Source of the DNA: an uncultured virus (IMG/VR IMGVR_UViG_3300010346_002895) | Taxonomy: Duplodnaviria; Heunggongvirae; Uroviricota; Caudoviricetes | Virus record (IMG/VR): IMGVR_UViG_3300010346_002895 | Length of the DNA: 64,000 nucleotides | Direction: 5' to 3' (one strand) | Shown here: in pieces, positions 7,235 through 53,517 of the stretch | Layout of the letters: every line of letters begins with the position of its first letter | Numbering within the stretch: position 1 is the stretch's first letter | Notes under the pieces: model-generated | The model's database searches: none | What the model saw: the letters and a program-made list of their open reading frames with translations, nothing else | What the model was told of the DNA's origin: nothing | Made by a program: the position numbers and the translations under genes

Positions 7235-7466
7235 CTACCTGGTAAAGGCCTTTTTCAGGGGCTTGAGGCGACAGCTTCGCAAAAATAAATTTTCGCAGGC
7301 TGATTTGGGGATTCGGACAACCGCAAGAAAATTGCTAAAAAAGCAAGAAATAAAAGGCGTTTTTTGTTGTTGCAGCGGCTCCCCGAAACTTCAATTTTAA
7401 GGCCTCAAAAAAATATTTTCCCGAACCTGTCGCCTCAGCGCCTCAAAAAAGGCCTTTACCAGGTAG
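7235..7466. promoter_or_regulatory. Imperfect inverted repeat (arms ~7235-7300 and ~7401-7466) between divergent int and sigma-like genes
   Basis: CTACCTGGTAAAGGCCTTTTT (7235-7255) is the exact reverse complement of 7446-7466; similarity continues through TGAGGCGACAG. Confidence 0.8.
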
Positions 7467-18084: not shown

Positions 18085-18378
18085 CATTACGGCTGCATTA
18101 CGGTTCATTACGGTTGAAACGGCTCAACCGTAATGTTGTAAAAGCCTTTTGCGAAGCGGTATTTTTGTCCTTTTTACCCCCAACATTACGGCATTACGGT
18201 TGTTTCTCTAATTACGTCTCGCGAGAGAAAAAAATAAAAAAAATAAAATATGTTTTTTTCATGTATAGACGTAAATAGGGATTTAACCGTAATGCCGTAA
18301 TGTTTTTCAAAAAAGCCTTTTGGCAAGCCGTTATTTCCCATTTCGGTTGTTTTCTCCAACCGTAATGCAACCGTAATG
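18085..18378. repeat. Iteron array with AT-rich core, putative replication origin
   Basis: CATTACGG at 18085, 18096, 18106, 18184, 18192 and CCGTAATG at 18128, 18287, 18295, 18360, 18371; A/T tracts near 18225-18260. Confidence 0.8.
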
Positions 18379-18816: not shown

Positions 18817-19050
18817 ATGAGTTATAAGAACGCCGCTGAAATTTTGCCGGAAGAGCTTATCAACGAGATCAGAAAATATTTTCCGGGCGGAATTCTGTGG
18901 GTGCCGGGCACAGGAGAGGAACGCAAAGAGCGCGATGAGCTTGTCGTATTCCTGAAAAAAAATGGCGTTACCACTAAAGAAATTGCCGGGCTTGCGAAAC
19001 TGACCCCCGGCCAAATCCGCCGAATCATACTCAAACATGAGAGCCGCTGA
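18817..19050 (+). CDS. CD3324/Mor-like HTH transcriptional regulator
   Basis: 'YKNAAEILPEELINEIRKYFPGGILWVP' plus C-terminal HTH. Confidence 0.75.
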   Translation: MSYKNAAEILPEELINEIRKYFPGGILWVPGTGEERKERDELVVFLKKNGVTTKEIAGLAKLTPGQIRRIILKHESR

Positions 19051-20695: not shown

Positions 20696-21622
20696 TCATA
20701 AGGTTTCCATCGCCTGTTGAAGTTCCTCGGACGGCACGTGGGCGTAGATGGTCGTCGTCGAGATGTGCCGGTGGCCGAGACTCTGCTGCACCAGCGCGAG
20801 ATTCCCGGTGCGCTCGAGCAGACTGGTTGCGAACGTGTGGCGCAGACCGTGGACGGAGATGTTCTTCCCGATGCCCGCGGCGGCAAGCCACTCATCGAAC
20901 GAGCGCTGCACTTGCCGGACGGACACGCGGCGGCCCTGATTGCTGACGAACAGCGCGCGAGTCTCGACCGGCGTCTTCCGGCGGGCTTTCAGGTATGGTT
21001 CGAGCGCGCGGCGGGCATGGACGTTCAGAAACCGCATCGCGGTGTGGCCGCCCTTGACCCGGATGGTGATGCGGCGCTCCGGCAGGTTCACGTCATCGAT
21101 ATCAAGTCCGACCAGCTCGGACACGCGAATGCCGGTGTTGAGAAAGAGGCTGACGATGGCAAAGTCCCGGAAGGCTTTCTTCCCCCTCGTATTCGAGATG
21201 GCCTTGAGCAGTCTCTTTTTCTCGACATCGGTGAGCGTCTCCGGCGCGGGGCGATAGACGTGACGGATGCGGATGCCGGAGGCGGGATTGGACGGAACAT
21301 GACCGGACGCGGCGAGCCAGTTAAAGAAGGACTTCACCGAGGTCTTTACCTTGTTGACGGTGCATTCACTCTTAAGGCCGCCGTCCGGCTTTCGCGTCAC
21401 CTCTTCGGACACGAGGAACTCGTTCAACATATCCGGCGTGACTCCGGAGACCTCAGGGCAGTGGAGACGGTTCTCAATGAACCGCTCCAACTGCCCGAGG
21501 TCACGGAGGTAGGAAGCGACCGTGTGCGGCGAGCGCCCGTCGGCCCTCAGCTTCGTCTCGAACAGGTCAATCGCCCTGCGCGGCGTCAGCGGCGGGTTCG
21601 GAGTCACCGGTGCCGTTTCCAT
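20696..21622 (-). CDS. XerC/D-like tyrosine recombinase
   Basis: TGIRVSEL, HGLRHTFAT, LGHRHISTTTIY: full canonical catalytic set. Confidence 0.92.
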   Translation of the reverse strand: METAPVTPNPPLTPRRAIDLFETKLRADGRSPHTVASYLRDLGQLERFIENRLHCPEVSGVTPDMLNEFLVSEEVTRKPDGGLKSECTVNKVKTSVKSFFNWLAASGHVPSNPASGIRIRHVYRPAPETLTDVEKKRLLKAISNTRGKKAFRDFAIVSLFLNTGIRVSELVGLDIDDVNLPERRITIRVKGGHTAMRFLNVHARRALEPYLKARRKTPVETRALFVSNQGRRVSVRQVQRSFDEWLAAAGIGKNISVHGLRHTFATSLLERTGNLALVQQSLGHRHISTTTIYAHVPSEELQQAMETL

Positions 21623-21980
21623 TCCGTTCGCGTCCTTTCTTCATTTCAGCCTTCGGAAGCGGGATGTCCGCGAGGAATCCCTTCTCGTGCGCCCAGACGA
21701 GCATCATGCGCGTGACTCTCTTGTTCTGGACTATCGTTATAGGGCTCTTCTCGACGCCGCTCGGCTTTTTGAGGAATGCGTCGGACTTGAAAAATGTGCC
21801 GATGGTCGCCGGGGTGAGTTTGCCGAGCGGTTTGTCCGCGCCGAAATAAGAGCTGACATTCTCGAGGCACCGGCCATAGACCTCGACCGTGCGCTCGTTC
21901 TTGCCCTCGTCCTTCAGGTGCTGAAGAAACGCGGGGATTGCTTTCTCAAACGTGATTTCCTTTGCTTTCTTTGTCGCCAT
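21567..21980 (-). CDS. Stand-alone integrase N-terminal SAM-like (core-binding) domain protein
   Basis: 'AIPAFLQHLKDEGKNERTVEVYGRCL...FLKKPSG' parallels the N-terminus of the neighbouring recombinase; no catalytic domain. Confidence 0.7.
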   Translation of the reverse strand: MATKKAKEITFEKAIPAFLQHLKDEGKNERTVEVYGRCLENVSSYFGADKPLGKLTPATIGTFFKSDAFLKKPSGVEKSPITIVQNKRVTRMMLVWAHEKGFLADIPLPKAEMKKGRERNGNGTGDSEPAADAAQGD

Positions 21981-24368: not shown

Positions 24369-25895
24369 ATGGATTTAAAAACGACCGGGAAAAGCAGACT
24401 GCCCTGGCACTGGAGCCGGATAAACGGGGTGCTCAGGACTGAAAGCGACATGGGAACCGCCGCGGAGGTGAACTCCTCCGCGTTCGGCGATCAGCTCGTG
24501 AGCGACGCCATCCCCAAAACGTGGGAGGAGCGCGCCGTGAAGGCATGGCAGTATTACGTCGAGGAACCCATCGTTCAGAACGCGATCAACTCATGGCGCA
24601 CGTTCGCCATCGGCGATGAAATCCAGTTCAACTGCGACGACGAGGACGTGAAGTGGGAAGTCCGGGATTTCGCCGAGCGGGTGGAACTCAACAAACTCAT
24701 CAAGGACAGCGTTCTCCAGTGTCTCGTGAAAGGTGAGACGATATGTTTCAAACGCCCCGCAAAGGACGGCAAGGACATCGAGGAAGTCGTCTGCGTCAAC
24801 CCTATCAGCGTGAAACTGCGCCACGAGAACGGGAAACTCGTCGAGGCGACACAGACCCCTGAAACCGGCGAACCGATAGACCTGCCGCTCGATCAACTGC
24901 TCCACATCAAGTGGAACGCGCCGTCCTACTCCGCGCGGGGCAACTCGATGGTCGTCACGGCGTTCGAGTCCGTCGAGCTTCTCCGCGATTACCGTAAGGC
25001 CGAGCGCGCCGTCGCCAAGCGGTGGACGACCCCGCTCCGCTTCATCCAGGTGGGTGGGCAGTTTGGGCAAAAAACCATCATTCCCGACCAGAAAACCCTG
25101 AACAGTGTGCGCGACATGCTGAACCGGATGGATTTGAAGGCCGGGCTTGTCGTGCCGTTTTATGTGAAGGCGGAAACATACGGCACCGAGGGACAGGTAC
25201 TCGACACGGAAAAGAAGATCAAGGAGATCAAAGAGGACATCATCATCGCGCTCGGCCTTGCGAAGTCGCTCATCACCGGCGACGGCCCGAACTTTGCAAC
25301 CGCCGCCATCGGCATGCAGAAGATGGTCATCATGCTGAAGGAGATCAAGCAGGTCGCGCGGAACATTTTGAACTGGATCATCTGGGACTGGCAAAAACTG
25401 CACGGGTATGAGGAAAAAAGCATCAATTACATCTTCAACGATCTCGACCTCACGAACGAGGTGGACATCAAAAAGCTTTACATCGAACTTTTTGACCGGA
25501 AACTCATTTCCCGAAACAGCCTCCAGATCAAGATGGACCTGAATCCGGAAGTCGAAGATTCCCACACGGAAACGGAATCAAAACAGCCAATCGATGTTAC
25601 CGATCCGAAGATCATCATCGACATGGTGAACTCCGGGATCATGTCCGTCGAGATCGCGCAAGAGAAGCTCGGCCTGGACAAACAGAAAAACCGCCCGGCG
25701 ACCGCGGACTGGAACTACAGGCCGCCGACGGCAACCGGGGATTTTGAATTCGATACGATCTGCGACGAGTGCGAGTTTTTCGATGACGAAAACAACTGGT
25801 GCGACGCGCTGAACAGGGAAACCCGGTTCGATTCGCGGGCGTGCCGCTCTTTTGAAAAGAAACGAGACAAGGAAGCGTGTAAATGCGGGCAGTAG
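24369..25895 (+). CDS. Portal protein
   Basis: Position after terL, ~500 aa, GGAGG RBS; Cys-rich C-terminal extension. Confidence 0.8.
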   Translation: MDLKTTGKSRLPWHWSRINGVLRTESDMGTAAEVNSSAFGDQLVSDAIPKTWEERAVKAWQYYVEEPIVQNAINSWRTFAIGDEIQFNCDDEDVKWEVRDFAERVELNKLIKDSVLQCLVKGETICFKRPAKDGKDIEEVVCVNPISVKLRHENGKLVEATQTPETGEPIDLPLDQLLHIKWNAPSYSARGNSMVVTAFESVELLRDYRKAERAVAKRWTTPLRFIQVGGQFGQKTIIPDQKTLNSVRDMLNRMDLKAGLVVPFYVKAETYGTEGQVLDTEKKIKEIKEDIIIALGLAKSLITGDGPNFATAAIGMQKMVIMLKEIKQVARNILNWIIWDWQKLHGYEEKSINYIFNDLDLTNEVDIKKLYIELFDRKLISRNSLQIKMDLNPEVEDSHTETESKQPIDVTDPKIIIDMVNSGIMSVEIAQEKLGLDKQKNRPATADWNYRPPTATGDFEFDTICDECEFFDDENNWCDALNRETRFDSRACRSFEKKRDKEACKCGQ

Positions 25896-28800
25896 CCGTA
25901 GAAAAAACTCTCCGTGACCGGATAATCGAGGCCACCGCGGTCTCGCTCCATAACCGTGATCTTTACACGGAGCAGACGGTGGCGCGCGTCACCGACTCGC
26001 TTCAGCGCGCCGAGAAAGACGTCAAGGCGAGTCTGCTTTACTATGCGAATCTCGGTTCCCTGCCCGAGGGCAAGGCGATCAATCAGGCGTCGCTCCGGAA
26101 ACTTCAGCAGCAGATCAGGGAACACATCCGCGTCGTCCGGGACGAGCATTCCCTGATTATGAAAACCGCTGTCAAAGACAGCTATAAGGCGGGCATCCAC
26201 AACGGCATCGGCGACCTCGTCCGGGCAAAAATGCCGTTTTACCGCGACCTCACGCCGGACGGTATCAAACAGTGCGGCAGCAACATCTTCACGCTGATCG
26301 ATAAGGACGCGCTGGATTTCATGGTGAATTACAACGTCCAGCTTGCCGGGGATGTTTCCCGCGAGTTGACCGATGGGATCAACCGCGCCATCCAGACCGG
26401 CATCGCCTCCGGCCGGAGCGTCCCGGAGATCGCGAAAGACATCGGGCGCGTCGTGCGCGATCCGGAGGAGTTCCGAAAGGCCGGAAAGACTGTCTTCAAA
26501 ACGGCGCAGCACAGGATGGAACTCATCGCCCGGACGGAAACGCTCCGGGCGCACAATCAAGGGCACCTGAAATTCTATCAGACCGTCGGCGTACAGAAGG
26601 CGGAATGGATAACGGCGGGCGACGAGAGGATGTGTCGGGAATGTTCCGCGCTAGACGGAAAGTTGTTCCCGGTTGATAAATTCCCCAATCAGCCACTTCA
26701 TCCGGCCTGTCGCTGTTCTTCAGTTGTAGCGTATCCCGTCGAGATATGCGGCGCGAAAAATCTCGGCGCCACCGCCGCGCCCGCCGAAGCCGCCTGCATC
26801 CTGCCGCCCCAGGCCATCGAGGAGATGGCGAAGGAAAAACAGTCCGAGGCGATAAAGATCGGGCAGTACATCGCAAATGGCGAATGGAGCAAGCTCACAA
26901 TCAAGCAGCTTCAGGATAAGGCAAAGGCGGGCGGCATCTCCATTGCCCGGACAAAAGCCGACTTCCTCGGCATCCTCAAACAAAAAACCGGAACCGACTT
27001 CTCGCATCTGGGCGGCACGGAACTCAAATCTCTTCTTAAAGAATACAAAATCGCCGCGCTCCGAAGCAAAGATGAACTCATTGACCTTCTGAAAGCGAAA
27101 GCAAAACATGAAGAGATACCGGATTTCGGGTCCATGCCGGTATCGAAACTCAATGAGCTGGCGAAGGAAAAAGGAATCTCCCTCAATCTCACGAAGCAGG
27201 AAGTTATCGACATCCTCGATGTGCTTGAGCCCGGCGTGGATCACGGCGCCCTGTCCGGCCAGAGCCTCATCGAGGCGAAAACGAAATTCAATCTTCCGAT
27301 CCTCAAAACAAAGGAACAACTCGTAAAAGCGCTTGAGAATAATTTCAAAGAGGAACTCGGAAAGAAGGTCACCAAGGAAGCCGTCGTTCAGGTCGCAGAG
27401 GAAACAATAAAAAAGGAAAAAGAAGAAATCATTTCCCTGCTGGATGCCGTGAAAGTTTCCGCAGACCCGAAGGATTACAAAGCAGTTCTGACCGCGATAA
27501 AGGACGCCGAAACGCTCCTCGGCAAGGAAGGACTGTCGGTCGGGGACGATTATCTGAAGGGAAAAGCCGCCGACCTCGCAAAAAAGAAAGCCGAATTCAA
27601 AGCGAAGATTGAGTCGATGTCCGCGAAAGACCTGAAAGACCTCGCCAAGCAGAGCAAGGTGACAAAGTGGCAATGGGGCAGCAAGCAGGAATTCATCACG
27701 CTTTTCACCGAGACGGACGACGCGGCGATAAAGGCGGCGAAGGACAGCATCGAGGCCAAGTGGGCGAAATGGGCCGAGAAATACGGCAAGAAAACCGCCG
27801 GCGTGCCCGCGGCGAAGCCCGTTCCGAAGCCCACGCCGAAACCGGCTCCTGCGGCCGTTCTTGAGAAACCGCACGCGGATGTTGCCACCGGCTTTGCAAA
27901 AGTGGACACCGACTGGGATGCGCTCGACAAGGGAAAGGCATTCAAGTATTCGCGGGACGCGAAATCCCTCGGGGGCGCGCATGAAAAATACATCTACGTG
28001 GACGAGCGGGGCGACGAGTGGCTTTTCAAACCGACCGATAAGTTCATCGCGCAGGGCGAAGAGATGGCCTACCATGTCGCGCGGCTCGTTGATCCAGACG
28101 CCGTCGAGGTTCGCTTCATCGAGATTGACGGTCGCGCCGGTTCCATCCAGCGGCTGGTGAAAAACGTCAAATCCGAGGCGTCGTTCCGCGACATCCCCAT
28201 CGGGAAGCTGTCTTCTTCCGAAATCGAGGCCGTGCAGCGCGAGCACATCATCGACTGGCTTATTTCCAACCACGACGCGCACGCCAAGCAGTTTGTCCGC
28301 GCCGCGGACGGACGGGTTCTTGGAATTGATAAAGGCCAGACGTTCAAATTTCTCGGCAAAGACAATCTGTCCGTTGCTTACCATCCGAACTCGATGGAGG
28401 CCGAGCCGATCTACAACACGCTGTTCCGGGCATATAAAGACGGCGGGATCGACATTGATTTCAACGCCGCTTTCAAATACATCCGGCGCGTCGAGCAGAT
28501 ACCGGATTCGGAATACCTTGAAATTATCCGTCCTTATGTCGAGGGACGGTTCGGCGCGAAAGCGAGCGCGGCGAAGGATGAGTTTTACCGGCTGGCACTG
28601 GAACGGAAAAACAACATCCGCCGCGACTTCGAGAAATTTTATGACGATCTGCACAAGGCGCGGTTCAAAGCCGAGTTCCGGTTCGGCGATGATGTCAAAA
28701 CCGTCCGGAAATTATCGAAGGAAGATGAAATGATCCTGCGCGAGGCGCACGAGATGAAAGCCCAGGGGAAAGCCATGCGCCTCGACGTTGACGACATCGA

Positions 28801-30412
28801 GGATCAGAACGCGCTCGTTTTCACGCAGAAGAATCTTCAGGGCAAAGAAGAAACTGTCATCCAGTTCAAGCTGCGACCGGATTCAGAAAAGAAGCTCCTT
28901 GACGCCCTCGGCGAAAAAGGCTCGGCCATGAAAGGCCTGTCCCCCGGCGAAACGCTGCCCGATGACACCTTTTACGACAAAATCCTCGCGGGCGCGAAGA
29001 CCGTCAACCACCACGTGGACGCGGGCGATTTTGCGTACAACCAGGACAAGCTGGATGAAATCAGAAAGATCATCCCCGATCTTGAAAAGCTGGCGAAGTC
29101 CGGCAAGACGGCGTCCATTCGGGACATGGCCGAGGAATATAGGAAGGCGTGCGAGGCCGTGCTGGATGCGGCGAACAATAACAAAAAGCTCGCCGGTAAA
29201 TTCGAGCAGTACACCGCGAAAAAACAACTCATTCAAAAAGAGGCGCTGCCGGAGCCGAAAAAAACGGGCTTCCGGTTCCAGAAAACGGATATCAGGATGG
29301 AACAGCGGCAGTGCCGTAACGGTGAAGTCCACGTCGTCAAATCAGACACCGACCTTAACACTATTTTCGGACGGGGTTCCGGTTTCAATCGCGGCGTGCA
29401 GTACCGCATCGAGTTGGACGATGGCGTGGTCATGGATTACCGCCCCTGGGACTCCGCGAACCCTTACGCGGTTCAGGGACAGGTGGAAATCCGCGTCACC
29501 GGCAAAATCGCCGATCCGGAAAAGTTCGAGTCTATTCTCGACCGTCTTGAACAACTCGGCGTCAATTCCGTGCCCGCAAGCGTGGAGGATGCCGAGATCA
29601 TGATGCTTTCCAAGCAGGCATATCTCCTGAAAAAAGACACGTCCCCGGCATGGAAAAAGATGATGCGGGAAATGGACTCCTCGAACGCGACAAAGGCCGA
29701 GCGCATCCAGGCAATGCGGAAGTTCTGGGCGGATGAACTCGGCGTCGACGACGTGACGAAGATACCGGGCTACGATCCGGTCGGAAATTACGAACTCGGT
29801 TTCAAAGACCCGACGCGCCGCGCGGGCTACCGGCACCAGATGCGTTTCGACATTACCGATGCTGATTTGGAGCGGGAACTCAAAGGGTTCGGGCTGTATC
29901 ACAACATCACGGACAGCGGGGACGTTGAAGACCTCGTGAAAACCGTGCTTGAAAACAATGGAAACATGGTCTCGACGGTCGAGAAAATCCGAATCGGCGT
30001 TAAACCCGGCGGCATGTCCCCCGTGAGCGACATGCGGACAGGCGGCGCGACATACTTTTTCACCAGAGTCCGCAAGCTGCCCGTATCCGGTCGTGGAAGC
30101 GCGGGGTTGTATTTCAAAAAACGGCTTTTGCGCCGAATGGATGCCATTACTTATGACCACGACGCATTCGGCAAAGTCATCGACGATTACGTCCGCAAAA
30201 AACGTCTTTCAAGCATTCAGGATTACAAGCGGCTGGCATCCGGCGGGCGCAGCGACGAGACGATTTTCAAATACACGGTGTCGCTCCCGGACGAGATTGA
30301 AGTCATCAAAACGAGCAACGCGGCGCAGCGCGCGAGGATCGTCGAGATGTTCAAAAAGCAAGGTTTCTCAAAACTGCCGGATGGCCGGAGGATAGAGGAC
30401 GTGGTGCTCTGA
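25883..30412 (+). CDS. MuF (SPP1 gp7-like) minor head protein with long C-terminal extension: helical repeats, HipA/PI3K-like kinase, ART-like domain
   Basis: LIARTET...WITAGDERMCRECSALDG...PLHPACRC; GGAHEK, WLFKP, NHDAH, GIDKG. Confidence 0.85.
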   Translation: MRAVAVEKTLRDRIIEATAVSLHNRDLYTEQTVARVTDSLQRAEKDVKASLLYYANLGSLPEGKAINQASLRKLQQQIREHIRVVRDEHSLIMKTAVKDSYKAGIHNGIGDLVRAKMPFYRDLTPDGIKQCGSNIFTLIDKDALDFMVNYNVQLAGDVSRELTDGINRAIQTGIASGRSVPEIAKDIGRVVRDPEEFRKAGKTVFKTAQHRMELIARTETLRAHNQGHLKFYQTVGVQKAEWITAGDERMCRECSALDGKLFPVDKFPNQPLHPACRCSSVVAYPVEICGAKNLGATAAPAEAACILPPQAIEEMAKEKQSEAIKIGQYIANGEWSKLTIKQLQDKAKAGGISIARTKADFLGILKQKTGTDFSHLGGTELKSLLKEYKIAALRSKDELIDLLKAKAKHEEIPDFGSMPVSKLNELAKEKGISLNLTKQEVIDILDVLEPGVDHGALSGQSLIEAKTKFNLPILKTKEQLVKALENNFKEELGKKVTKEAVVQVAEETIKKEKEEIISLLDAVKVSADPKDYKAVLTAIKDAETLLGKEGLSVGDDYLKGKAADLAKKKAEFKAKIESMSAKDLKDLAKQSKVTKWQWGSKQEFITLFTETDDAAIKAAKDSIEAKWAKWAEKYGKKTAGVPAAKPVPKPTPKPAPAAVLEKPHADVATGFAKVDTDWDALDKGKAFKYSRDAKSLGGAHEKYIYVDERGDEWLFKPTDKFIAQGEEMAYHVARLVDPDAVEVRFIEIDGRAGSIQRLVKNVKSEASFRDIPIGKLSSSEIEAVQREHIIDWLISNHDAHAKQFVRAADGRVLGIDKGQTFKFLGKDNLSVAYHPNSMEAEPIYNTLFRAYKDGGIDIDFNAAFKYIRRVEQIPDSEYLEIIRPYVEGRFGAKASAAKDEFYRLALERKNNIRRDFEKFYDDLHKARFKAEFRFGDDVKTVRKLSKEDEMILREAHEMKAQGKAMRLDVDDIEDQNALVFTQKNLQGKEETVIQFKLRPDSEKKLLDALGEKGSAMKGLSPGETLPDDTFYDKILAGAKTVNHHVDAGDFAYNQDKLDEIRKIIPDLEKLAKSGKTASIRDMAEEYRKACEAVLDAANNNKKLAGKFEQYTAKKQLIQKEALPEPKKTGFRFQKTDIRMEQRQCRNGEVHVVKSDTDLNTIFGRGSGFNRGVQYRIELDDGVVMDYRPWDSANPYAVQGQVEIRVTGKIADPEKFESILDRLEQLGVNSVPASVEDAEIMMLSKQAYLLKKDTSPAWKKMMREMDSSNATKAERIQAMRKFWADELGVDDVTKIPGYDPVGNYELGFKDPTRRAGYRHQMRFDITDADLERELKGFGLYHNITDSGDVEDLVKTVLENNGNMVSTVEKIRIGVKPGGMSPVSDMRTGGATYFFTRVRKLPVSGRGSAGLYFKKRLLRRMDAITYDHDAFGKVIDDYVRKKRLSSIQDYKRLASGGRSDETIFKYTVSLPDEIEVIKTSNAAQRARIVEMFKKQGFSKLPDGRRIEDVVL

Positions 30413-30888
30413 TGCAGCAGGAACTCGAAGCCGTGAAACAACAGATGCAGGGAAAAATAGACCGGATCACCGCGCCCGGGTCTGTGGTGTTTGTCGACCT
30501 CGGAGGCTCGGACTTTGTCCGCATCCTTGTGGATCGGTTCGATATCCTGTTCGCCCGGCCCGTCATCGCCGCGGACGGCGCCCTGGCCGGTCATTATTAC
30601 TGGGCCGTGTGTTTTGAGATGGGGTTCGATCAGGGCGGTCCGCAGCATGTCCGGTTATTCAAGATGGAGAACATCATGGAGGAGCGCCCCGACCTGTTCC
30701 TGTTCCGCGACCACCGGGGATATTCCTGTTTCATTGAATCCATCGACGTGATCGACGACGCGAAAAAAGCCGATTTCAAAATGTGGCGGGAGTATAGGGG
30801 GCAAAATCAGAAGGCTTTCGACCGGCTGTATCAGAATTTCACCACCGAGGCGATGGAAATGGCGCTGAACTACGAAAGGGATGTCTGA
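30412..30888 (+). CDS. Hypothetical protein, candidate immunity protein
   Basis: Translationally coupled (TGATG) to the MuF fusion. Confidence 0.65.
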   Translation: MQQELEAVKQQMQGKIDRITAPGSVVFVDLGGSDFVRILVDRFDILFARPVIAADGALAGHYYWAVCFEMGFDQGGPQHVRLFKMENIMEERPDLFLFRDHRGYSCFIESIDVIDDAKKADFKMWREYRGQNQKAFDRLYQNFTTEAMEMALNYERDV

Positions 30889-31235
30889 TGAAAATACGGT
30901 ATTTCATCGAGTACAAGCGGCCTGATCCGAACAAGTGGGAGTTCATTCCCATCGGCGTCTGGGCGCACGGCGTGGACGACCACTCGGCGTTCGAGGTTGG
31001 GTATGTGCAAGGGTTCGACGCCGAGGATTGGGACGCCCAGTGTGTGATTAACCGGATCGTGGAACAGGGAATCCGGGAACTGCCGGAGGATTTTCTTGAA
31101 CGGCATCGGGACGCAGTTCCTGTTTATCTCGGTTCGCGCACAAAGGTGTTCGAGACGGACAAATATGCCAGCGTGACGGAACTGGTCAACGATCTGCTGG
31201 AACAGATCAGGAAGGGGAAATTCAACAATGCATAA
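30888..31235 (+). CDS. Hypothetical protein, candidate immunity protein
   Basis: Translationally coupled (TGATG), acidic 115 aa. Confidence 0.65.
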   Translation: MKIRYFIEYKRPDPNKWEFIPIGVWAHGVDDHSAFEVGYVQGFDAEDWDAQCVINRIVEQGIRELPEDFLERHRDAVPVYLGSRTKVFETDKYASVTELVNDLLEQIRKGKFNNA

Positions 31236-31374
31236 AATCATCGCCTTCCTTCAGAAACTGCTCTCGGAGCGTTTTTACGGTCAGGTCGTTTTCCGATTCG
31301 AGAACGGAAAAATCACGCATGTGGAGAAAATAAAAACGGAAGCGAAATGGGAGTTTAAGAACTTGCCGGAATAA
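31228..31374 (+). CDS. 48-aa DUF2292-like protein (absent from ORF track)
   Basis: MHKIIAFLQKLLSERFYGQVVFRFENGKITHVEKIKTEAKWEFKNLPE; AAGGGG RBS. Confidence 0.7.
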   Translation: MHKIIAFLQKLLSERFYGQVVFRFENGKITHVEKIKTEAKWEFKNLPE

Positions 31375-31381
31375 CCTGACG

Positions 31382-31490
31382 AAAAACCAGTCCGGAAGTG
31401 TTGAAAGCCGAGCCCGGTAAATAAGCCCGGAAGCGTCGGCCCAAGCCCGGTGACATGCGAGAGATCGCGCGTTGCCGGGCTTTTTATTTT
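31382..31490 (+). ncRNA. Structured cis-regulatory element with terminator, copy 1
   Basis: Four AGYCCGG repeats, GCCGA/TCGGC stem, long hairpin with GAGA loop, T tract; homologous copy at 50543-50653. Confidence 0.7.
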
Positions 31491-31505
31491 TCCGCGAGGT
31501 GCGCA

Positions 31506-34500
31506 ATGGAAACAGACAACTTTAAAACCGATCTTGAAAAAATACAGTTTCTTCTCGAAGCCGACGCGGAACTGCGCCTCGGCCTTCTTGTCGCCGAGGG
31601 CAAGCTGGAACTTGTCACCGAGGAGCTGCCCGCTGAGGAGCGCCCGAAGTATATCACCAATTTCATCGGCTCGAAGCAGAAGCTCGTTGACTGGATATGG
31701 GGCAACACGCCGGAAGACGCGGAATCCGTCTTCGACGCTTTTTCCGGCTCCTCCGTCGTCGGGTACATGTACAAAACCAAGGGGCTGCGGGTGTTTTCGA
31801 ACGACCGGCTGTCTTATTGTTACCATGCCGCCCGTGCCATCGTTGAAAACAACAACACGCGCCTCTCCGAAAAAGACATCGAGGGGCTGCTCAAAGATCA
31901 CAACTCCGAAGCCGGGACGTTCATCCAGAAGACATACCACGGCATCTTCTTCAAGAACGATGTCCTTGCCCTCCTGGATGTGCTTCGCGCCAACATTGAT
32001 GCTCTGTCCGGCACAAAAAAGAGCATGGCGCTGTTCGCGCTGGGTAAGACGTGCATGTCCGGCGGCGGGTTCGGGCATTTCTCGTCCACGACAAAGGGCG
32101 GACAGCGGCACTACACAACCGAGAGTTTTATCGAGCACTACCGAGACAATCTCTATCGCATCAACGCGCTCGTCTTCGACAACGGGAAGGAAAACAAGGC
32201 ATTCAACGGCGACATCCTCGACATCGCCCCGAAAGTCAAAGCCGACCTCGTTTATTTCGATCCGCCTTATGCCACGGAGTTCAGTTCCACGAATTACGAG
32301 AAGTATTACCACTTTGTGGAAGGACTGATGGACTACTGGAAGGACAAAGAGATCGACCACACCAAAAAAATCCGCAATTACAAAATCGAAGACACAGGCG
32401 TCACGCCCGCGACCGCGAAACAGTTCTTCACCGATTTTCTAACCGCTTCGAAGCACATTCCCAACTGGCTTATCTCCTACCGGGACAACGCCTATCCGAC
32501 CGAGTCCGAGATCAAGGGGCTTATCGCGGACCTCGGAAAAGAGTCCCGCATGAAGTCGAAGGATCACAAATACCAGCTCGCGGGCAAGAACCGCCAGGGC
32601 GATCCCTCGAACGCGAAGGAACGCCTGTTCGTGTGCGCTGACGCCGGAGAGGACGACGCGGGACTGTCCGCCGTCGCCAACATGGAGGACATCGCCGATC
32701 TGTCGCACGATGCCGATTTCGATCCGGATGTCCTGAGCGCCATCGCGGGAAAAACGGAAAACATTCTCGTGACCGGGTTCATCGGAAACAAGCACTTCAT
32801 CATGAACTGGATCGATAAAAACTTCCCGAAAGACGCGAAGAGCCTCTTTGACGCTTTTTCCGGCGGCGCGAACGTCGCCTATTTCTACAAACGCAAGGGG
32901 CTGCGTGTAATTACCAACGACATCATGCGCTACCCGTACCACATCGCCCGGGCCGTCATCGAGAACAACACGGAAACCCTCTCCGACGAGGAACTGGAAG
33001 CGCTGATTGAAAAGCACTCCGACGCCGGGACGTTCACCACCGACACGTTCTACGGCTACTACTACACGAAGCCGATCCTCCAGTTCCTCGACACCGTATG
33101 GGCGAATGCCCGGAAACTCAAAGGCTACAAGAAGGACATCGCGCTCGCGGCGCTCGGGCACACCTGCAAGGCCAAGGCCGTGTTCGGGATGTTCAACCGC
33201 AGCAAGATGAACCGGACGCGGAATATAAGCGATCTGGCCGAGGGCTATCGCTCGTCCAGCATCGGGAACATCCCGATTTCCGAGTTCGTCACCGCCTTTA
33301 AAAAATACGTCCGCCAGATAAACGGCCTTGTTTACGACAACGGGCAGGAGAACAAGGCGCACAACTGCGACGTCCTCAAAATTCTTCCCGAAGTAAAAGC
33401 CGACGTCATCTACTGTGATCCGCCTTATATCACCGAGTTTCTGCGGAATGACTATGAGGATTATTACCACTTCGTGGAAGGCCTCATGACCCGGTGGGAA
33501 GGGAAAGAAATTCTCGACACGCCCCGGCACAACTTCGCGTCCCGCACCAAGTATGACAAGGACAGCATCCGCGAACTGCTCGGCAATGTCGTCACCGCCG
33601 CGGCGAAAAACTTCCCGCACATTCTCATCAGCTACCGGGACAAGGCGTTCCCGACAGAAAAGGAAATGAAAGAGATGGTATCTGGTTCCTTCGGCGACGT
33701 GAAAGTGAAGCGCATCGCCGTTGAATACAACATCGTCAAAAAGGAATCCGACGCGGGCGGCAAATACGCGAACGAGCTTCTTTTCATAGGCAAAAAGACA
33801 TCCGCCGGCGCGGCAAAGGCCGGGCGCGAAGACGACGACATCCTGGATGCGATTGCCGATTCCGACTTCAAGATGAAGACGCAGAAAAATTCCCAGATCA
33901 CGCTGGGGCATTCCATTCTTCACCGCTGGTACGCCGCCGGGTGGGATTCAGAGGGCAAAAACGAAACCACCACGTGGACGCGGGAACAGGTCGTCACGGA
34001 ACACACGCGCCTGCACAAACTGGCGCTCGAGCGGAACCTTGTCTTCTCTTTCATTCCCGGCAGCGTGGACGAGACGCTTCCCGATGAATTGAAAAAGCAA
34101 ATAAAAGAAAAATTCGAGCAATCCAACGCTGCGGCGGCGTCCGTTCAGACCCACCCCGAGAACCACACAACCATAATCGGCGACATCCGGCTCGACGGCG
34201 TGAATTTGCTCGCCGCCGAGGGAATCAGTCTGTCCGACAACAACGTTGCGGGCGACAAGGAATTCAGTTTCATCCTCACGCACGCGGGGCCGAACAAGAA
34301 CGGCGATTACTTCAACGTCGAGGAACTCTCCGCGCGGCACCAGACGGCGATCAACAAAAAGATCGACCTTAAACACTCACAGGATTTCACGGACATCGTC
34401 GGCGGCGTCATAGCGAGTGACTTCGTTCAGGAGGGGGAGAAGGCGTGGGTGGAATGCGTCGGGGAGCTTTATACGAACGACAACATCAACTCACGGCTCG

Positions 34501-35366
34501 CGTACAAGCTGATCAAAAAGGGCATCATCACGCAAGTCTCGATGGAGTGCGATTACGAGGAAGGCGAATGCTCGATCTGCGGGAAGCGCGTGCGCACCAA
34601 GGCGGATTACTGCATCCATCTGAAGAAATACAAGGGAGGTGAATTCAAGGGGCAACCCGTTTACGAAATTCTCCACGGCATCACCTTTACGGGACTCGGC
34701 CTGCTGGACCGCAAGGGCGCCGACGAGAACGCGAGGATAAAGCAGGTTGCGGAAAAACACACCAATGAAGGAGGTAGCAACGGTATGGACAGTGAAAACA
34801 AGAATCCCGAAACCGAGGAAACCGAGGCGGCGAAAAACAAAGCGCCCGGCGGCGGCGGAGACAATAGCGCCCGCCTGAAGGAACTCGAGAAGGAGAACAA
34901 AGACCTGAAAGCCAAGCTCGATGAGGTCCAGAAGGAACTGGACAAGCTGCGCGAAGAACAGGCTGCGGCGGCGCGCCGGACACGCTCGGAAAAACTCGTC
35001 AAGGAGATGGAGAACCGGGGCATCGAGTTCGAGGGCGATGACGACCGCGAGACCGAATTGAAACGGCTGGCGGGACTCACCGACGACGCTTTCTCGGCCA
35101 CCGAGGCCGCGGTGAAGCGCGTGAAAAAGCCCAAAGACCAGAAGGAGGAGCCGAACCCGGACGAGAATCCGGAGGACGAGGACAAGAAGAAGGAGAAGGA
35201 CAAGAAACAGCCGCCCAAGAAGAGCAAGGCCGACTCCGGCGGCGGTATGAGCGCGGACGCGGACGTGCGCCCGTTCGATGTCGAGGACGGCGACAAACCC
35301 CTCGAGGAAAAGCTGAAATCCGGCTTCATGGCGGCGTACAACGAGCGCGTCGGCGCGGACAACTGA
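31506..35366 (+). CDS. Fusion: two D12-class N6-adenine DNA methyltransferases + prohead protease + scaffold
   Basis: FIGSK..FDAFSGS..DPPY (32259) and FIGNK..FDAFSGG..DPPY (33417); NKNGDYF..IDLKH..VSMEC..CSIC..GITFTGLG..GAD; charged coiled-coil tail. Confidence 0.85.
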   Translation: METDNFKTDLEKIQFLLEADAELRLGLLVAEGKLELVTEELPAEERPKYITNFIGSKQKLVDWIWGNTPEDAESVFDAFSGSSVVGYMYKTKGLRVFSNDRLSYCYHAARAIVENNNTRLSEKDIEGLLKDHNSEAGTFIQKTYHGIFFKNDVLALLDVLRANIDALSGTKKSMALFALGKTCMSGGGFGHFSSTTKGGQRHYTTESFIEHYRDNLYRINALVFDNGKENKAFNGDILDIAPKVKADLVYFDPPYATEFSSTNYEKYYHFVEGLMDYWKDKEIDHTKKIRNYKIEDTGVTPATAKQFFTDFLTASKHIPNWLISYRDNAYPTESEIKGLIADLGKESRMKSKDHKYQLAGKNRQGDPSNAKERLFVCADAGEDDAGLSAVANMEDIADLSHDADFDPDVLSAIAGKTENILVTGFIGNKHFIMNWIDKNFPKDAKSLFDAFSGGANVAYFYKRKGLRVITNDIMRYPYHIARAVIENNTETLSDEELEALIEKHSDAGTFTTDTFYGYYYTKPILQFLDTVWANARKLKGYKKDIALAALGHTCKAKAVFGMFNRSKMNRTRNISDLAEGYRSSSIGNIPISEFVTAFKKYVRQINGLVYDNGQENKAHNCDVLKILPEVKADVIYCDPPYITEFLRNDYEDYYHFVEGLMTRWEGKEILDTPRHNFASRTKYDKDSIRELLGNVVTAAAKNFPHILISYRDKAFPTEKEMKEMVSGSFGDVKVKRIAVEYNIVKKESDAGGKYANELLFIGKKTSAGAAKAGREDDDILDAIADSDFKMKTQKNSQITLGHSILHRWYAAGWDSEGKNETTTWTREQVVTEHTRLHKLALERNLVFSFIPGSVDETLPDELKKQIKEKFEQSNAAAASVQTHPENHTTIIGDIRLDGVNLLAAEGISLSDNNVAGDKEFSFILTHAGPNKNGDYFNVEELSARHQTAINKKIDLKHSQDFTDIVGGVIASDFVQEGEKAWVECVGELYTNDNINSRLAYKLIKKGIITQVSMECDYEEGECSICGKRVRTKADYCIHLKKYKGGEFKGQPVYEILHGITFTGLGLLDRKGADENARIKQVAEKHTNEGGSNGMDSENKNPETEETEAAKNKAPGGGGDNSARLKELEKENKDLKAKLDEVQKELDKLREEQAAAARRTRSEKLVKEMENRGIEFEGDDDRETELKRLAGLTDDAFSATEAAVKRVKKPKDQKEEPNPDENPEDEDKKKEKDKKQPPKKSKADSGGGMSADADVRPFDVEDGDKPLEEKLKSGFMAAYNERVGADN

Positions 35367-49048: not shown

Positions 49049-50536
49049 ATGCCGGAACTCGACGTCAGCCGTCTAGTCAATTTCTCGAAGCAGATCGACT
49101 ACACCAGTCTGGACTGGCTTTCGTTTCTATCCGACATGGTGGATAAGATTCCGCAGCTCACGCCGGAATGGACGGACTACTCCGCGTCCGATCAGGGCAT
49201 GGTCATCCTTGAACTTGTTTCTTTTGTACTGGACGCTCTTTCATACCGGTGCGACGTGATCGCAAACGAGGCCTACATCCAGACCGCCGTCCTGCGGAAA
49301 TCCGTCCTGAACCTTGCGAAGATGATTGATTACACCCCGGCGCCCGCTGTTTCGGCGGTGACCGATCTTGTGTTCACGATAACGCAGCAGCCGATTGATT
49401 TTGTGATTCCGGCGGGCACACAGGTTTCCACCCAGCCGACCGGCGTCGAGGAAAGTTATGTGTTCGAGACGATGGACGACCTCACTATTCCGGCTGGACA
49501 GACAACCGGCACGGTCGCCGCAATCGAGGGGGAAACAAAAAAGGAAATCCTCGGAAGCAGCACGGGACTCCCCGCGCAGTTCTTTGAATTGAGTTTCAAA
49601 CCTCTTTCTTATGCGCCGGACGCCACATGCTCGCTTGAAGTCTATGTGACTGAAAACGGCATCGAGGAACGATGGACGCTCGTGCCGTCGCTTCTCGACA
49701 GCAAACCGTTTGAAAAACACTGTGAAATCGAGATTGATGAAAACGACATCGTGACTGTGAACTTCGGAGACAATCAGAACGGCAAAATCCCCGCGCCGGG
49801 CATGAACAACGTCCGCGCCGTTTACCGTGTCGGCGGCGGCGCGCACGGCAATGTAGGCGCGAACAAGATCAACCGGATGGTTTCAAATATCTCTGAAGTG
49901 TCGTCTGTGACGAATCCGGCTCAGGCAATGGGCGGCGTGGACCGCGAGACGGTTGAGAGTATCAAGCGCATGGCTCCGAGAATGCTGCGAACGCTCTGGC
50001 GCGCCGTGACCGCCGAGGATTACAAAACACTCGCCGAAGTCCTACCGGGAGTTGCTAAAGCCACGGTTCTGTGCGCCCCGCCCGGGCAAGCGGCGTACTG
50101 GGGACAGGTGAATCTTTACATCGCCCCCGAAGGCGGCGGACTTCCGACAGAGGAACTCAAAAAGATGGTTGAGGAATATTTCGCCGACCGCGAAATGCTG
50201 ACGGCGACGACTGTCGTGTTCGATCCAGTGTATGTTCCGGTGAATGTCTCTCTCGAAGTCGCCGTGAAAGAGAACTACATGCGGCTCGATATCGAGAACG
50301 CCGTTCGTAAAGCCGTGCAGGACTTCTTCAATTTCCCGAACGTGGACTTCGGGCAGTGTGTGTTTATGAGCGATCTCGTCGCCGCCGTGGATGCTATCGA
50401 GGGTGTGCGGTATGTGAATCTGTCGGTTCTTTCACGCGACGTGACCGGCGTCGGGAACGTCATTATCTCCGCGAATGAAATCCCGCAGCTCGGAGCGCTT
50501 TCAATTGACACTTTTGGGGGCATAGAAGAATCGTAA
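49049..50536 (+). CDS. Baseplate J/gp47-like protein
   Basis: IDYTSLD..PEWTD..FGDN.NGKIP..YRVGGG..RAVTAEDY. Confidence 0.9.
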   Translation: MPELDVSRLVNFSKQIDYTSLDWLSFLSDMVDKIPQLTPEWTDYSASDQGMVILELVSFVLDALSYRCDVIANEAYIQTAVLRKSVLNLAKMIDYTPAPAVSAVTDLVFTITQQPIDFVIPAGTQVSTQPTGVEESYVFETMDDLTIPAGQTTGTVAAIEGETKKEILGSSTGLPAQFFELSFKPLSYAPDATCSLEVYVTENGIEERWTLVPSLLDSKPFEKHCEIEIDENDIVTVNFGDNQNGKIPAPGMNNVRAVYRVGGGAHGNVGANKINRMVSNISEVSSVTNPAQAMGGVDRETVESIKRMAPRMLRTLWRAVTAEDYKTLAEVLPGVAKATVLCAPPGQAAYWGQVNLYIAPEGGGLPTEELKKMVEEYFADREMLTATTVVFDPVYVPVNVSLEVAVKENYMRLDIENAVRKAVQDFFNFPNVDFGQCVFMSDLVAAVDAIEGVRYVNLSVLSRDVTGVGNVIISANEIPQLGALSIDTFGGIEES

Positions 50537-50542
50537 ACAGGT

Positions 50543-50653
50543 AAAAACGAGTCCGGCAGTATTGAAACTTCGAGCCCGGTAACCAGCCCGGCCGCATCGA
50601 GGTCAAGCCCGGTGGTCACGCGAGAAATCGTGGATTGCCGGGCTTTTTATTTT
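50543..50653 (+). ncRNA. Structured cis-regulatory element with terminator, copy 2
   Basis: Four AGYCCGG repeats, ACTTCGA/TCGAGGT stem, hairpin with GAAA loop, T tract. Confidence 0.7.
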
Positions 50654-50680: not shown

Positions 50681-50833
50681 ATGGACGACATCGGATGGGG
50701 TCTTGACCCGTGGGGAATGGAAGCGTGGGGCTCACCGCTCCAGGACTTCCCCGGTCTCGAGGAAATCGAAATTGAAAAAGTCGACGGGGTCGTTGAAAGC
50801 CCAGGGATTTTCTTTTTTGAAATTAGCGACTGA
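50681..50833 (+). CDS. 50-aa acidic WG-repeat protein (absent from ORF track)
   Basis: GGAGGTGA RBS; MDDIGWGLDPWGMEAWGSPLQDF... Confidence 0.65.
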   Translation: MDDIGWGLDPWGMEAWGSPLQDFPGLEEIEIEKVDGVVESPGIFFFEISD

Positions 50834-50859
50834 AAAACAACCACAAGGAGGCTGATTTT

Positions 50860-53517
50860 ATGGCATTCACATTCACAGATTTGCTTCACCTGGCCATGCC
50901 CGCGAGGGGCGACAAGAACTGGGACGCGGACGTAAACCGCGCTCTTCGCACCATCGACAATGCGCTCGGAGACCTCGGCGCGAGGCCGCGCCATTTCGAC
51001 AAGCGCGTGGTGAATCCCGGCGCGGTCTCGGCCACCGGCAGGGACGTTTCCGTCACCGGCGTGGAAGCCGTCGTGGGACAGGCGAAGACGGCCCTGGACG
51101 GCGGCGCGGCGACCGTTCCGGCCAACACGACCCGGAAACCGCGAATGGACTCCCTGTCCATCGATCCCGCCGCGCCGAGCACGCTGGTTCTCACCCAGGG
51201 CGATCCCGCGGAAATACTCGACGTGTTCCGCGTGGAAAAGTTGTTCGACAAGAACAACACGAACCTCGGCGATTTAATTCCCGATGGGGGCGTCGCGCCG
51301 ATTATCGGGCTGTTCGAGGACCCGGTCAACGACAGGCTGGTAGCCATGATCATGCGCATGAACAGGTTCGACCAGCCGCCCGATCCGCCGATCCTGTGCG
51401 AGTTCGATCCCGAAACCGGGCTATTCACCAATCTGAACGTCACGTTCCGGGTGTCATCGGCGTTCCAGCAGGACGTCGGCTCATTGAACTTCGTGTTGCC
51501 TCTCGGCTGCATCGCGCCGGACGCGGCGGGCACGGACGTGAGCTACTTCTTTCTTTCCCTGCTCGGAATCGACGACAGCCCCATGGGCGTGAGCCTGTGC
51601 GAGTTCGATTCCACCGGGCTTCTCGTCAGGATGTACGGCCTCGCCAACGCGGACGGAAATTATTTCCCCGCGCTTCCTTTCAACATGCGGTACACGGGCC
51701 GTGGAGCGTCGGATGAAAGGTTGTTCGAGTCTCACCTGTGGCCGCTCTCCGTGAAAATGCCCATGGCGAAACCCTTCATGGCGGACCTCAAAATCCCGTC
51801 GCCCGCAGCCAACATAAAAATGCTCGGGCAGGACATCATTTTCGGTTCCGTGAGCGCGAAGGCCGTGGAGATGGAACTCGATTCCATCCAGTGCCTCGAC
51901 GCGCGCGGCGACCGGCTTCTCATGCCCGGCGGCGGCCTTTCGGAGTCCGGCATTCTTGTCGGCGGCACGTTCGACTGGAACGGACAGATTCATTCCCTCG
52001 TAAAGGGCGGTGACCGGAACAGCGCCCCATGGAACAGCGTCCAGGGCGAAATGGACAACAAGAATAATTTCAATCCGTTCCTGCTTTTCCCGGAGATTCT
52101 GAAAAACACATATCTCTGGGACATGAACACCGCGCCGGTCGCGCCATCTTTCTCTTCGCCGGTGACACCGGCAAACACCGTGCAGTTCGCCATGTCCGGC
52201 CCGGTCAACAACAGCCGCGTCTATTTCAACAACGTCCAGATCAACAGCGCCCGGCTCATCATCAACAGCGGCACCATGAGCGGCTACAAAAAGCCGCCTG
52301 TCGGCAAATCCATCGTGGTTCATATAAAGACCCGCGACGGACTGGACTGCTGGTGGGAAAACGCGGTCGAGGATTTCGGAAGCAACGAGGTCGGCGTCAC
52401 GCTGGACAACGCGCACGTGTTCAGAGGCGCGCCGCCGTCGGATTATAACCAGCTTAACTGGAATACCGATGGACGGGTAATCCGCATCGGCGTCCGGACA
52501 AACAACGGAAACGACTACGAGGAGCGCGCGTGCAATCTCACAGGCGTCAACGACAACGACATCGGAAAACCCGTCCGGTGCGTGTATGACGACGGCTCGC
52601 AACACTTCGAGTTCATTTCCTACATCTGCGCCGCAGGAGAAAAGAGAAAGATTTACGCGGGCACGGATAATCTCGGCGACGACTGGCTCGGGCCGATTTA
52701 CCGCGAAGCGAACCGGGGCGACATCCATATCGGCTGGAACGTGCTCGATTCAAACAACGCGGAATCCTGGCCGAAGAGTTCCATACTGACGCCCCTCGTC
52801 CGGCAGCAGGACACGGATTTTATCACACTCTCTCAGTGGAACCACAATCCGTCGCCCACAAGGGATGTCACGTACACCAAGGGCGGCGCGACGGGCACAT
52901 GGCTCGATCCGAACGCCGGAACAAACGGCGAGACGTACCGGCTGGATGACACAACGCTCGTTTCGTCTTCCGGCCTTCCCCAGAAGTCCGGCGGAGGCAC
53001 GGATTACGGCTCGCTCGATCCGAACTGCTTCTCCTGCGACCTTGGGCATGACGAACCCATGCTCACCGTCGATGTGCTCACCGATCCGTCCAATCTCACC
53101 GTGGAACTTATTCCATATATTCCGCCGCTCGTGGAAAAAACGCGGCTGGATATTCCTTCGATCATCGGCATTTCCGCGGGCGTCGCGCGGCACAACGGCG
53201 GGCATTACGCATTCGGCCTGACGTTCGCCGGGTTCCCCGCGGGCGTCGTCATGGAATTCTCCCCGTTCGCAGAACCGGTCGCGCCGGATACTCCCGCGAA
53301 TCAGATCAAGGTCGGCGAGGTGCTTGTTCCGCCGGACGAGGAGTCGCCGGACATCCTTCCCGAAAACGTCCGCGTCGAGCCGGATTACTCGGATGCGACC
53401 GTGTCCCGCGCGGACCAGTTCGTGTCGTTTCTCATCGCGTCATACCTGAACAACGATTTCAGGAATATCACGAATATCGCCATGAACTTCCTGCCGATTC
53501 TCGCAAACATGAAATGA
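50860..53517 (+). CDS. Tail fibre / receptor-binding-like structural protein
   Basis: 'LAMPARGDKNWDADVNRALRTIDNAL' N-terminus; position. Confidence 0.6.
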   Translation: MAFTFTDLLHLAMPARGDKNWDADVNRALRTIDNALGDLGARPRHFDKRVVNPGAVSATGRDVSVTGVEAVVGQAKTALDGGAATVPANTTRKPRMDSLSIDPAAPSTLVLTQGDPAEILDVFRVEKLFDKNNTNLGDLIPDGGVAPIIGLFEDPVNDRLVAMIMRMNRFDQPPDPPILCEFDPETGLFTNLNVTFRVSSAFQQDVGSLNFVLPLGCIAPDAAGTDVSYFFLSLLGIDDSPMGVSLCEFDSTGLLVRMYGLANADGNYFPALPFNMRYTGRGASDERLFESHLWPLSVKMPMAKPFMADLKIPSPAANIKMLGQDIIFGSVSAKAVEMELDSIQCLDARGDRLLMPGGGLSESGILVGGTFDWNGQIHSLVKGGDRNSAPWNSVQGEMDNKNNFNPFLLFPEILKNTYLWDMNTAPVAPSFSSPVTPANTVQFAMSGPVNNSRVYFNNVQINSARLIINSGTMSGYKKPPVGKSIVVHIKTRDGLDCWWENAVEDFGSNEVGVTLDNAHVFRGAPPSDYNQLNWNTDGRVIRIGVRTNNGNDYEERACNLTGVNDNDIGKPVRCVYDDGSQHFEFISYICAAGEKRKIYAGTDNLGDDWLGPIYREANRGDIHIGWNVLDSNNAESWPKSSILTPLVRQQDTDFITLSQWNHNPSPTRDVTYTKGGATGTWLDPNAGTNGETYRLDDTTLVSSSGLPQKSGGGTDYGSLDPNCFSCDLGHDEPMLTVDVLTDPSNLTVELIPYIPPLVEKTRLDIPSIIGISAGVARHNGGHYAFGLTFAGFPAGVVMEFSPFAEPVAPDTPANQIKVGEVLVPPDEESPDILPENVRVEPDYSDATVSRADQFVSFLIASYLNNDFRNITNIAMNFLPILANMK

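Follow-up and report, generated by a model that had tools for sequence, protein, structure and literature searches.

The 48-aa product of a micro-gene in a myovirus-type prophage is probably an RNA-binding antiterminator which, like LicT at its RAT target, would stabilise a predicted nested hairpin at two RNA elements. The gene and the RNA have been gained, lost and moved together in related elements, and genomic evidence makes the 48-aa protein the best candidate partner of the RNA. The class of mechanism is known; the protein family and the RNA are not described as such in the literature searched. An earlier note on this DNA had proposed a switch acting at both copies of a repeat element. 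The terminator/antiterminator anatomy at both copies and the candidacy of the protein stand, while the AGYCCGG repeats as the bound unit and the proposed positive feedback do not. The window, that is the whole 64,000-nucleotide stretch analysed, encodes an integrase, a sigma-70-like protein, a RecD2-like helicase, a primase, terminase, portal, a MuF fusion, capsid, sheath and baseplate.

The micro-gene closes a run of terminase, portal, MuF, 158-aa and 115-aa genes, and a methyltransferase fusion follows (Table 1). The 48-aa ORF, missing from the program-made list, is present as the earlier note described it and contains the stretch FYGQVVFRFENGKITHVE. Compared with seven homologous genes, it shows a pN/pS of 0–0.14 per pair (95 synonymous and 26 non-synonymous changes), the differences falling mostly at third codon positions. 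Lack of conservation had been named beforehand as a refuting point; the ORF is a real gene, conserved as a protein. It is likely translationally coupled to the 115-aa gene through their overlap, and a sigma-70 scan around it found no convincing promoter on the + strand. The protein is only mildly basic, with 9 K/R and 6 D/E, a point against the antiterminator reading. As had been stated, the stop codon lies 7 nt before the repeat element in the window, counted to 31382, the first base common to both element copies in the alignment; the first AGTCCGG (31389) follows 14 nt past the stop. The weak second hit in genome G000 (C86) proved to be a fragment, broken and lacking an element.

Table 1 Features of the micro-gene, the RNA elements and their neighbours. 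Positions refer to the window unless a locus is named.
Feature	Position	Strand	Basis or remark
115-aa gene, conserved, function unknown, upstream of the micro-gene	30888..31235	+	stop overlaps micro-protein start, 8 nt
Ribosome-binding-site-like AGGAAGGGG, 10 nt 5' of the micro-protein ATG	31209..31217	+	sequence
Micro-protein gene, 48 aa (helix, beta hairpin, W-x-Y/F-K-x-L-P tail)	31228..31374	+	candidate antiterminator, RNA-binding; remotely like DUF2292/YezD
Antiterminator form of element 1: outer helix with bulge, A1 (31398-31403) with B2 (31442-31446), CCGG/CCGG extension	31392..31450	+	covariation and folding
Inner hairpin of element 1: the bulged helix again, oppositely oriented, B1 (31409-31413) with A2 (31433-31438)	31407..31440	+	predicted in both states
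Intrinsic terminator of element 1: hairpin 31443-31482, U-tract 31481-31491; 5' arm = B2	31443..31491	+	folding
Putatively gated gene 1, first of the head-tail block: fusion of two tandem D12 adenine methyltransferases with a C-terminal region	31506..35366	+	domain matches; gene position gives the protease/scaffold label
Baseplate J gene, directly upstream of element 2	49049..50536	+	domain matches
Element 2, nested hairpin: A1 50559, B1 50571, A2 50594, B2 50604	50553..50612	+	alignment and folding
Intrinsic terminator of element 2: hairpin 50605-50645, U-tract 50644-50653	50605..50653	+	folding
Putatively gated genes 2: 50-aa ORF (50681-50833) and unannotated 885-aa gene opening distal tail and lysis block	50681..53517	+	ORFs/gene order
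Three elements of one related prophage	L279:11790-11859, L280:1404-1472, L280:14865-14932		extra one before sheath region

AlphaFold2, run on a 39-row alignment, predicts a helix at residues 2–13 and strands at 18–25 and 28–36 with a mean pLDDT of 89.7, in agreement with the helix plus beta hairpin read from the sequence beforehand. A profile search with the protein returned 96 relatives at E ≤ 0.001, and 93 of them were scanned against Pfam, omitting the query's own cluster and two long proteins. PF10055 (DUF2292) was matched by 26 of the 93 at E ≤ 0.1, none above the family cut-off (best 21.8 versus 22 bits); genome G000 contains no PF10055 match, and the query has no match in NCBIfam. An alignment (A3) against one true DUF2292 member gave an E value of 0.0023 at a probability of 12.7%, which is suggestive only. 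These comparisons suggest that the 48-aa protein is remotely DUF2292-like and not a formal member, so the earlier label holds as a remote likeness only; the query itself lacks any Pfam match at E ≤ 1. The likeness to DUF2292/YezD/OscA (PF10055) lies in size and in a helix followed by a G-x-V-x-I beta-hairpin pattern; we take OscA and YezD to be DUF2292 proteins. The query also differs from the family in an extra C-terminal W-x-Y/F-K-x-L-P tail, which is common to the nearer relatives and absent from the short ones. According to the accessible part of PMC3596284, oscA is a small gene that shares a transcription unit with a sulfate-binding protein gene downstream of it, and the available text of PMC7921472 mentions DUF2292 merely as differentially expressed. 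The literature searched, with subscription papers largely outside it, yielded no molecular function for DUF2292, YezD or OscA, and literature listings of the same reach yielded no antitermination role for DUF2292-like proteins.

Structural and database comparisons of the 48-aa protein gave leads at most. The best Foldseek hit among PDB chains has an E value of 3.1, the model being too small to decide, and the best VIA-align hit (Z 2.7, rmsd 5.1, 41 aligned) is likewise limited in weight by the small model; a fold search by sequence gave nothing clear. The best viral-model match is an unnamed 65-aa protein (E 0.0097), the PHROGs match is phrog_4556 (unknown function, E 0.0078), and the best ESM Atlas score of 0.79 is a lead only. 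The homodimer prediction scored 0.11 against a mark of 0.42, which speaks neither for nor against a dimer.

The two elements of the window show 79% column identity in the alignment, and each carries four + strand AGYCCGG copies plus one reverse copy in the 3' arm of its terminator. A scan of the whole 4.4-Mb genome for RGYCCGG clusters returned both elements and one unrelated match, and neither the window nor the genome yielded a further element. Both copies fold better than shuffled sequences (z −2.96 and −3.17); Rfam gave no match in the window at the gathering score, the best hit having an E value of 1.2 at element 1. What distant relatives conserve is not AGYCCGG; it is four blocks in the order A1-B1-A2-B2, with the consensus G-Y-R-U-Y-G for A and C-R-A-G-C for B. 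B1 would pair with A2 and A1 with B2, each A/B pair giving the same helix with one bulged purine, so that two like sites would stand head to head across a small internal loop. Specifically, the inner helix is 100% paired in a de novo alignment of 22 sequences and has two doubly changed pairs (G-C 15 / A-U 7 and A-U 21 / G-C 1), and its covariation score was reached by none of 500 shuffles. The outer helix is nearly invariant in that alignment, where its support is more complementarity than covariation. Double changes occur in both helices in a further set of 16 distinct matches, which was fitted to the model and partly overlaps the 22 sequences. Additionally, one-sided G-C/G-U changes point to RNA. 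Tandem pairing of A1 with B1 and of A2 with B2 was rejected as the final fold, with a C-A mismatch at one pair in 15 of the 22 sequences; A1-B1 is 100% pairable and is predicted as a transient during folding. In pattern scans for further elements, 61 loci on viral contigs matched a triple AGCCCGG, five of them true elements and the remainder simple repeats; a two-half pattern gave three loci with a terminator among 120, and nothing matched a pattern that allowed for a longer inner stem.

In the predicted folds, B2 is part of the outer helix and also the 5' arm of the terminator; together with the covariation, this gives a hairpin that overlaps and excludes an intrinsic terminator. Folding of 20 of the 22 elements (two were skipped) favoured the terminator over the forced antiterminator in every case, by 2.9–13.1 kcal/mol. 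In stepwise folding the antiterminator is the minimum-energy fold until the 3' arm of the terminator appears, and the terminator takes its place thereafter; the inner site keeps its predicted fold in either state (pair probabilities 0.74–0.99). The outer helix would thus form first during transcription and later lose B2 to the terminator, so that the default state of the predicted switch would be OFF. The U-tract of one related locus (L208) is weak. No promoter was seen at element copy 1 in the sigma-70 scan, and element copy 2 begins 8 nt after a stop codon; we therefore read the elements as intercistronic gates. Ribosome-coupled attenuation by the micro-ORF was rejected because the gap between gene and element ranges from 12 to 3251 nt.

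The co-occurrence check proposed beforehand found the element downstream of the micro-gene in 22 of 37 gene-picked loci (duplicates L203, L204, L206 and L072 omitted; L211 replaced by a longer stretch). Nine of the 15 element-less loci have less than 2 kb downstream, and six have at least 2.3 kb past the conserved part of the gene (L220, L222, L223, L281 and L284 with about 2.7 kb or more, L285 with 2.3 kb); these six may be relics. Among 15 element-picked loci, the gene lies within 5 kb in 12, two are tail-region second copies, one of them on a contig having the micro-gene, and one is a chance match. In a distant phage, a second element (L238:4991-5061) follows a baseplate spike gene and not baseplate J, and second copies therefore appear to have been placed independently. 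Gene and element are adjacent in only seven of the 22 loci and separated by 667–3251 nt of cargo in 15, which removes the force of the 7-nt spacing as an argument. None of four true Pfam DUF2292 genes (L292-L295) has such a hairpin right behind it; a single-hairpin pattern gave 10 matches in G000 and four genomes that carry true DUF2292 genes, none with a terminator behind it on inspection. Of the loci picked by the downstream gene (best 80 of 157), eight have both the micro-gene and the element, the gene being broken in one of the eight, and 72 have neither. This split is essentially one between two clades, and therefore reflects one or few events; since there are two clades and many loci are close kin, the locus counts are not independent.

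Stronger evidence of linkage than the clade split comes from the change of address of gene and RNA, which are found as a pair at three different operon junctions. Junction I lies before the methyltransferase fusion. Junction II lies between RecD2 and CHC2 primase (L214, and L283 by the same primase start); in the window the RecD2 and primase genes overlap without an insert, and the primases of the window and L214 are 76% identical. Junction III follows a ParB-methyltransferase gene in Planctomycetota records (L224, with L218 and L221 assigned through the shared end of the upstream gene). A cargo slot opens between micro-gene and element in L201, L202, L205, L207, L208, L214, L219 and L221, with contents that differ by locus: an Mrr-like nuclease, an MNT-HEPN pair, a NucS-like/TPR protein, DUF4062 and unknowns. 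The slot may be a defence hot spot.

These moves bear on the most serious alternative, in which the RNA is a real switch but its partner is a host factor, a different phage protein or, as for HK022 put, RNA polymerase itself; the micro-gene would then be a linked neighbour that serves some other function. We consider this unlikely, as the micro-gene alone accompanies the element at junctions II and III. The neighbouring 115-aa and 158-aa genes are absent there and persist in the sister clade without the element; among the best 80 of 157 loci, the 115-aa gene occurs in 42 of the 72 that lack gene and element, and 36 of these copies end within 309 nt of the matched start. Consistent with another partner are the gene copies without a nearby element, the sigma-70-like protein encoded by the prophage, and elements that persist beside a broken gene. 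Specifically, one prophage (L279/L280) keeps three elements beside a frameshifted micro-gene; it may be defective or served in trans.

Single-site versions of the RNA also exist. Right behind the short relatives L068 and L070, the same bulged helix occurs just once, carries an AACAA loop and overlaps a terminator; no such hairpin lies right behind the short relatives L069 and L073. A search by DNA pattern alone found a single-copy bulged helix with a terminator behind similar small ORFs in L306 and L309, whose profile E values are 0.0014 and 0.0061 at low probabilities. The phage of L309 carries a second single-site hairpin before a capsid-like gene (L308:2501-2521), where an obvious U-tract is absent. 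The single-site versions keep only the terminator-overlapping site. This argues against the protein binding the element as a negative or translational regulator, with the inner hairpin favouring termination or the start codon under control, a reading to which we give little credence. In its favour, the inner site has the clearest covariation and stays folded in either state, and the downstream start codon comes about 15 nt past the element 1 U-tract. The same motif is, however, kept in the terminator-excluding outer helix, and a repressor would add little because the default is already OFF by the 2.9–13.1 kcal/mol given above.

It is very improbable that the element acts as DNA, as an activator site or head-operon promoter, with the protein as a DNA-binding activator. 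The idea draws on the sister clade, where a promoter-like motif occupies the same slot in 65 of the 71 loci with enough sequence that lack gene and element (best 80 of 157). In these loci (L319-L390) a conserved TCCGACAC, about 10 nt and TCCGGTAAGTAA stand 60–110 nt before the start of the methyltransferase fusion, a candidate late-activator site, and one part of the motif, CCGGTAAGTAA, is similar to the region of the inner loop in elements of the window clade. Against a DNA site, the elements show one-sided G-U-type changes and double changes, a transcript begun there would be ended by the downstream U-tract, which lies on one strand, and the full sister motif is absent from the eight element loci and the window's contig. 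Nor do we see much of a case for an oligomer that wraps single-stranded AGYCCGG repeats in the manner of TRAP or HutP and boosts its own production: four repeats per element do occur in the window and its closest kin, but at least three are kept in only seven of 23 elements (16 have two or fewer), the repeats are paired in the covarying nested hairpin of the predicted folds, and the gene lies upstream of both terminators with no further element in window or genome. The repeat-like look of window-clade elements arises because both helices are extended by self-complementary CCGG.

In the antiterminator reading that we prefer, the protein would bind the bulged helices, and the inner site, folded at all times, may pre-load it. 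Occupation of the outer site would block the terminator, and polymerase would then read past the two predicted late-block terminators. Gene order suggests a feed-forward gate in which the packaging genes come first and the last product of their run would open the head-tail block and the distal tail/lysis block. The positive feedback proposed earlier is not supported, because the micro-gene lies upstream of both terminators and neither window nor genome yielded another element; read-through would make no more of the protein. In relatives, a closed terminator would shield the structural genes from transcripts of cargo inserted just before that terminator.

The proposed mechanism resembles that of BglG/SacY/LicT and RAT in that a small RNA-binding unit would stabilise an irregular hairpin excluding an overlapping intrinsic terminator (accessible parts of PMC3575810 and of the review PMC12591593). 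As the available text of PMC3575810 describes it, LicT is a symmetric, beta-stranded homodimer that contacts two internal loops of a 29-nt hairpin, whereas here a helix and two strands are predicted, and the element is a nested hairpin of about 60 nt with two identical bulged helices. Unlike BglG/LicT, the 48-aa protein stands alone, has no CAT or PRD domain (no Pfam match) and is apparently controlled by synthesis alone, and its element sits between genes inside a phage late block. In conAn of pLS20, by the accessible part of PMC8191782, a small protein gene beside an RNA element likewise controls read-through in the long operon of a mobile element; the RNA alone antiterminates, processively over unrelated terminators, and the ConAn1 domain is PF17362. 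Here, in contrast, each terminator has its own overlapping element, which argues for local over processive action, and the 48-aa protein has no PF17362 match (E ≤ 1). ANTAR antiterminators target twin hairpins and thus share the use of two RNA sites for one regulator; the present sites are nested head to head and not tandem stem-loops, and the protein has no ANTAR domain. HK022 put is a further case of RNA-level antitermination in a temperate phage, acting with RNA polymerase itself, and differs in that the elements here have no Rfam match. TRAP/HutP-type proteins bind conserved unpaired short repeats in leaders, in contrast to the paired and poorly kept repeats described above.

A broader proposal, to which we give somewhat less than an even chance, is that DUF2292-like micro-proteins make up a family, as yet undescribed, of RNA-binding antiterminators that stand alone. 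The RNA site would have been doubled in this lineage, as a two-fold symmetric nested hairpin with cooperative binding, alongside a tail missing from single-site versions, and gene plus RNA would act as a portable gate, taking the place of a promoter at junctions of phage operons and creating between them a slot for inserted cargo genes. New at this locus are the nested site in doubled form, the moves between junctions, the slot for cargo genes and an exchange with a promoter-like motif. If true, a widespread family of tiny proteins, for which the searched literature gave no mechanism, would gain a molecular function, and a minimal antitermination switch of 48 residues and 100 nt would join phage late-gene control. 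The natural single- and double-site versions and the promoter-like sister clade make mechanism and evolution directly testable, and the parts are small enough for use as an orthogonal genetic switch.

Several other features of the window were observed. A long inverted repeat with 59-nt arms (7235-7466) lies between the integrase and sigma-like genes, and another with 38-nt arms (18182-18304) follows the primase amid short repeats and is a possible replication origin. A 77-aa ORF before the late block (18817-19050) has no Pfam match at E ≤ 0.01; to our eye it looks like a Mor-type activator. Between the start of the late block and the terminase, a second tyrosine-recombinase-like gene, judged by eye, lies with a small partner gene on the opposite, − strand (20696-21980). 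The MuF minor head protein (25883-30412, 1509 aa) has a long extension with a weak HipA-like kinase match (E 0.00016, below cut-off) and is followed by the conserved 158-aa and 115-aa genes of unknown function, an arrangement which presumably resembles a MuF toxin-immunity layout. On the − strand, a 500-aa protein with tandem repeats of about 62 aa (60570-62072) matches phrog_22655.
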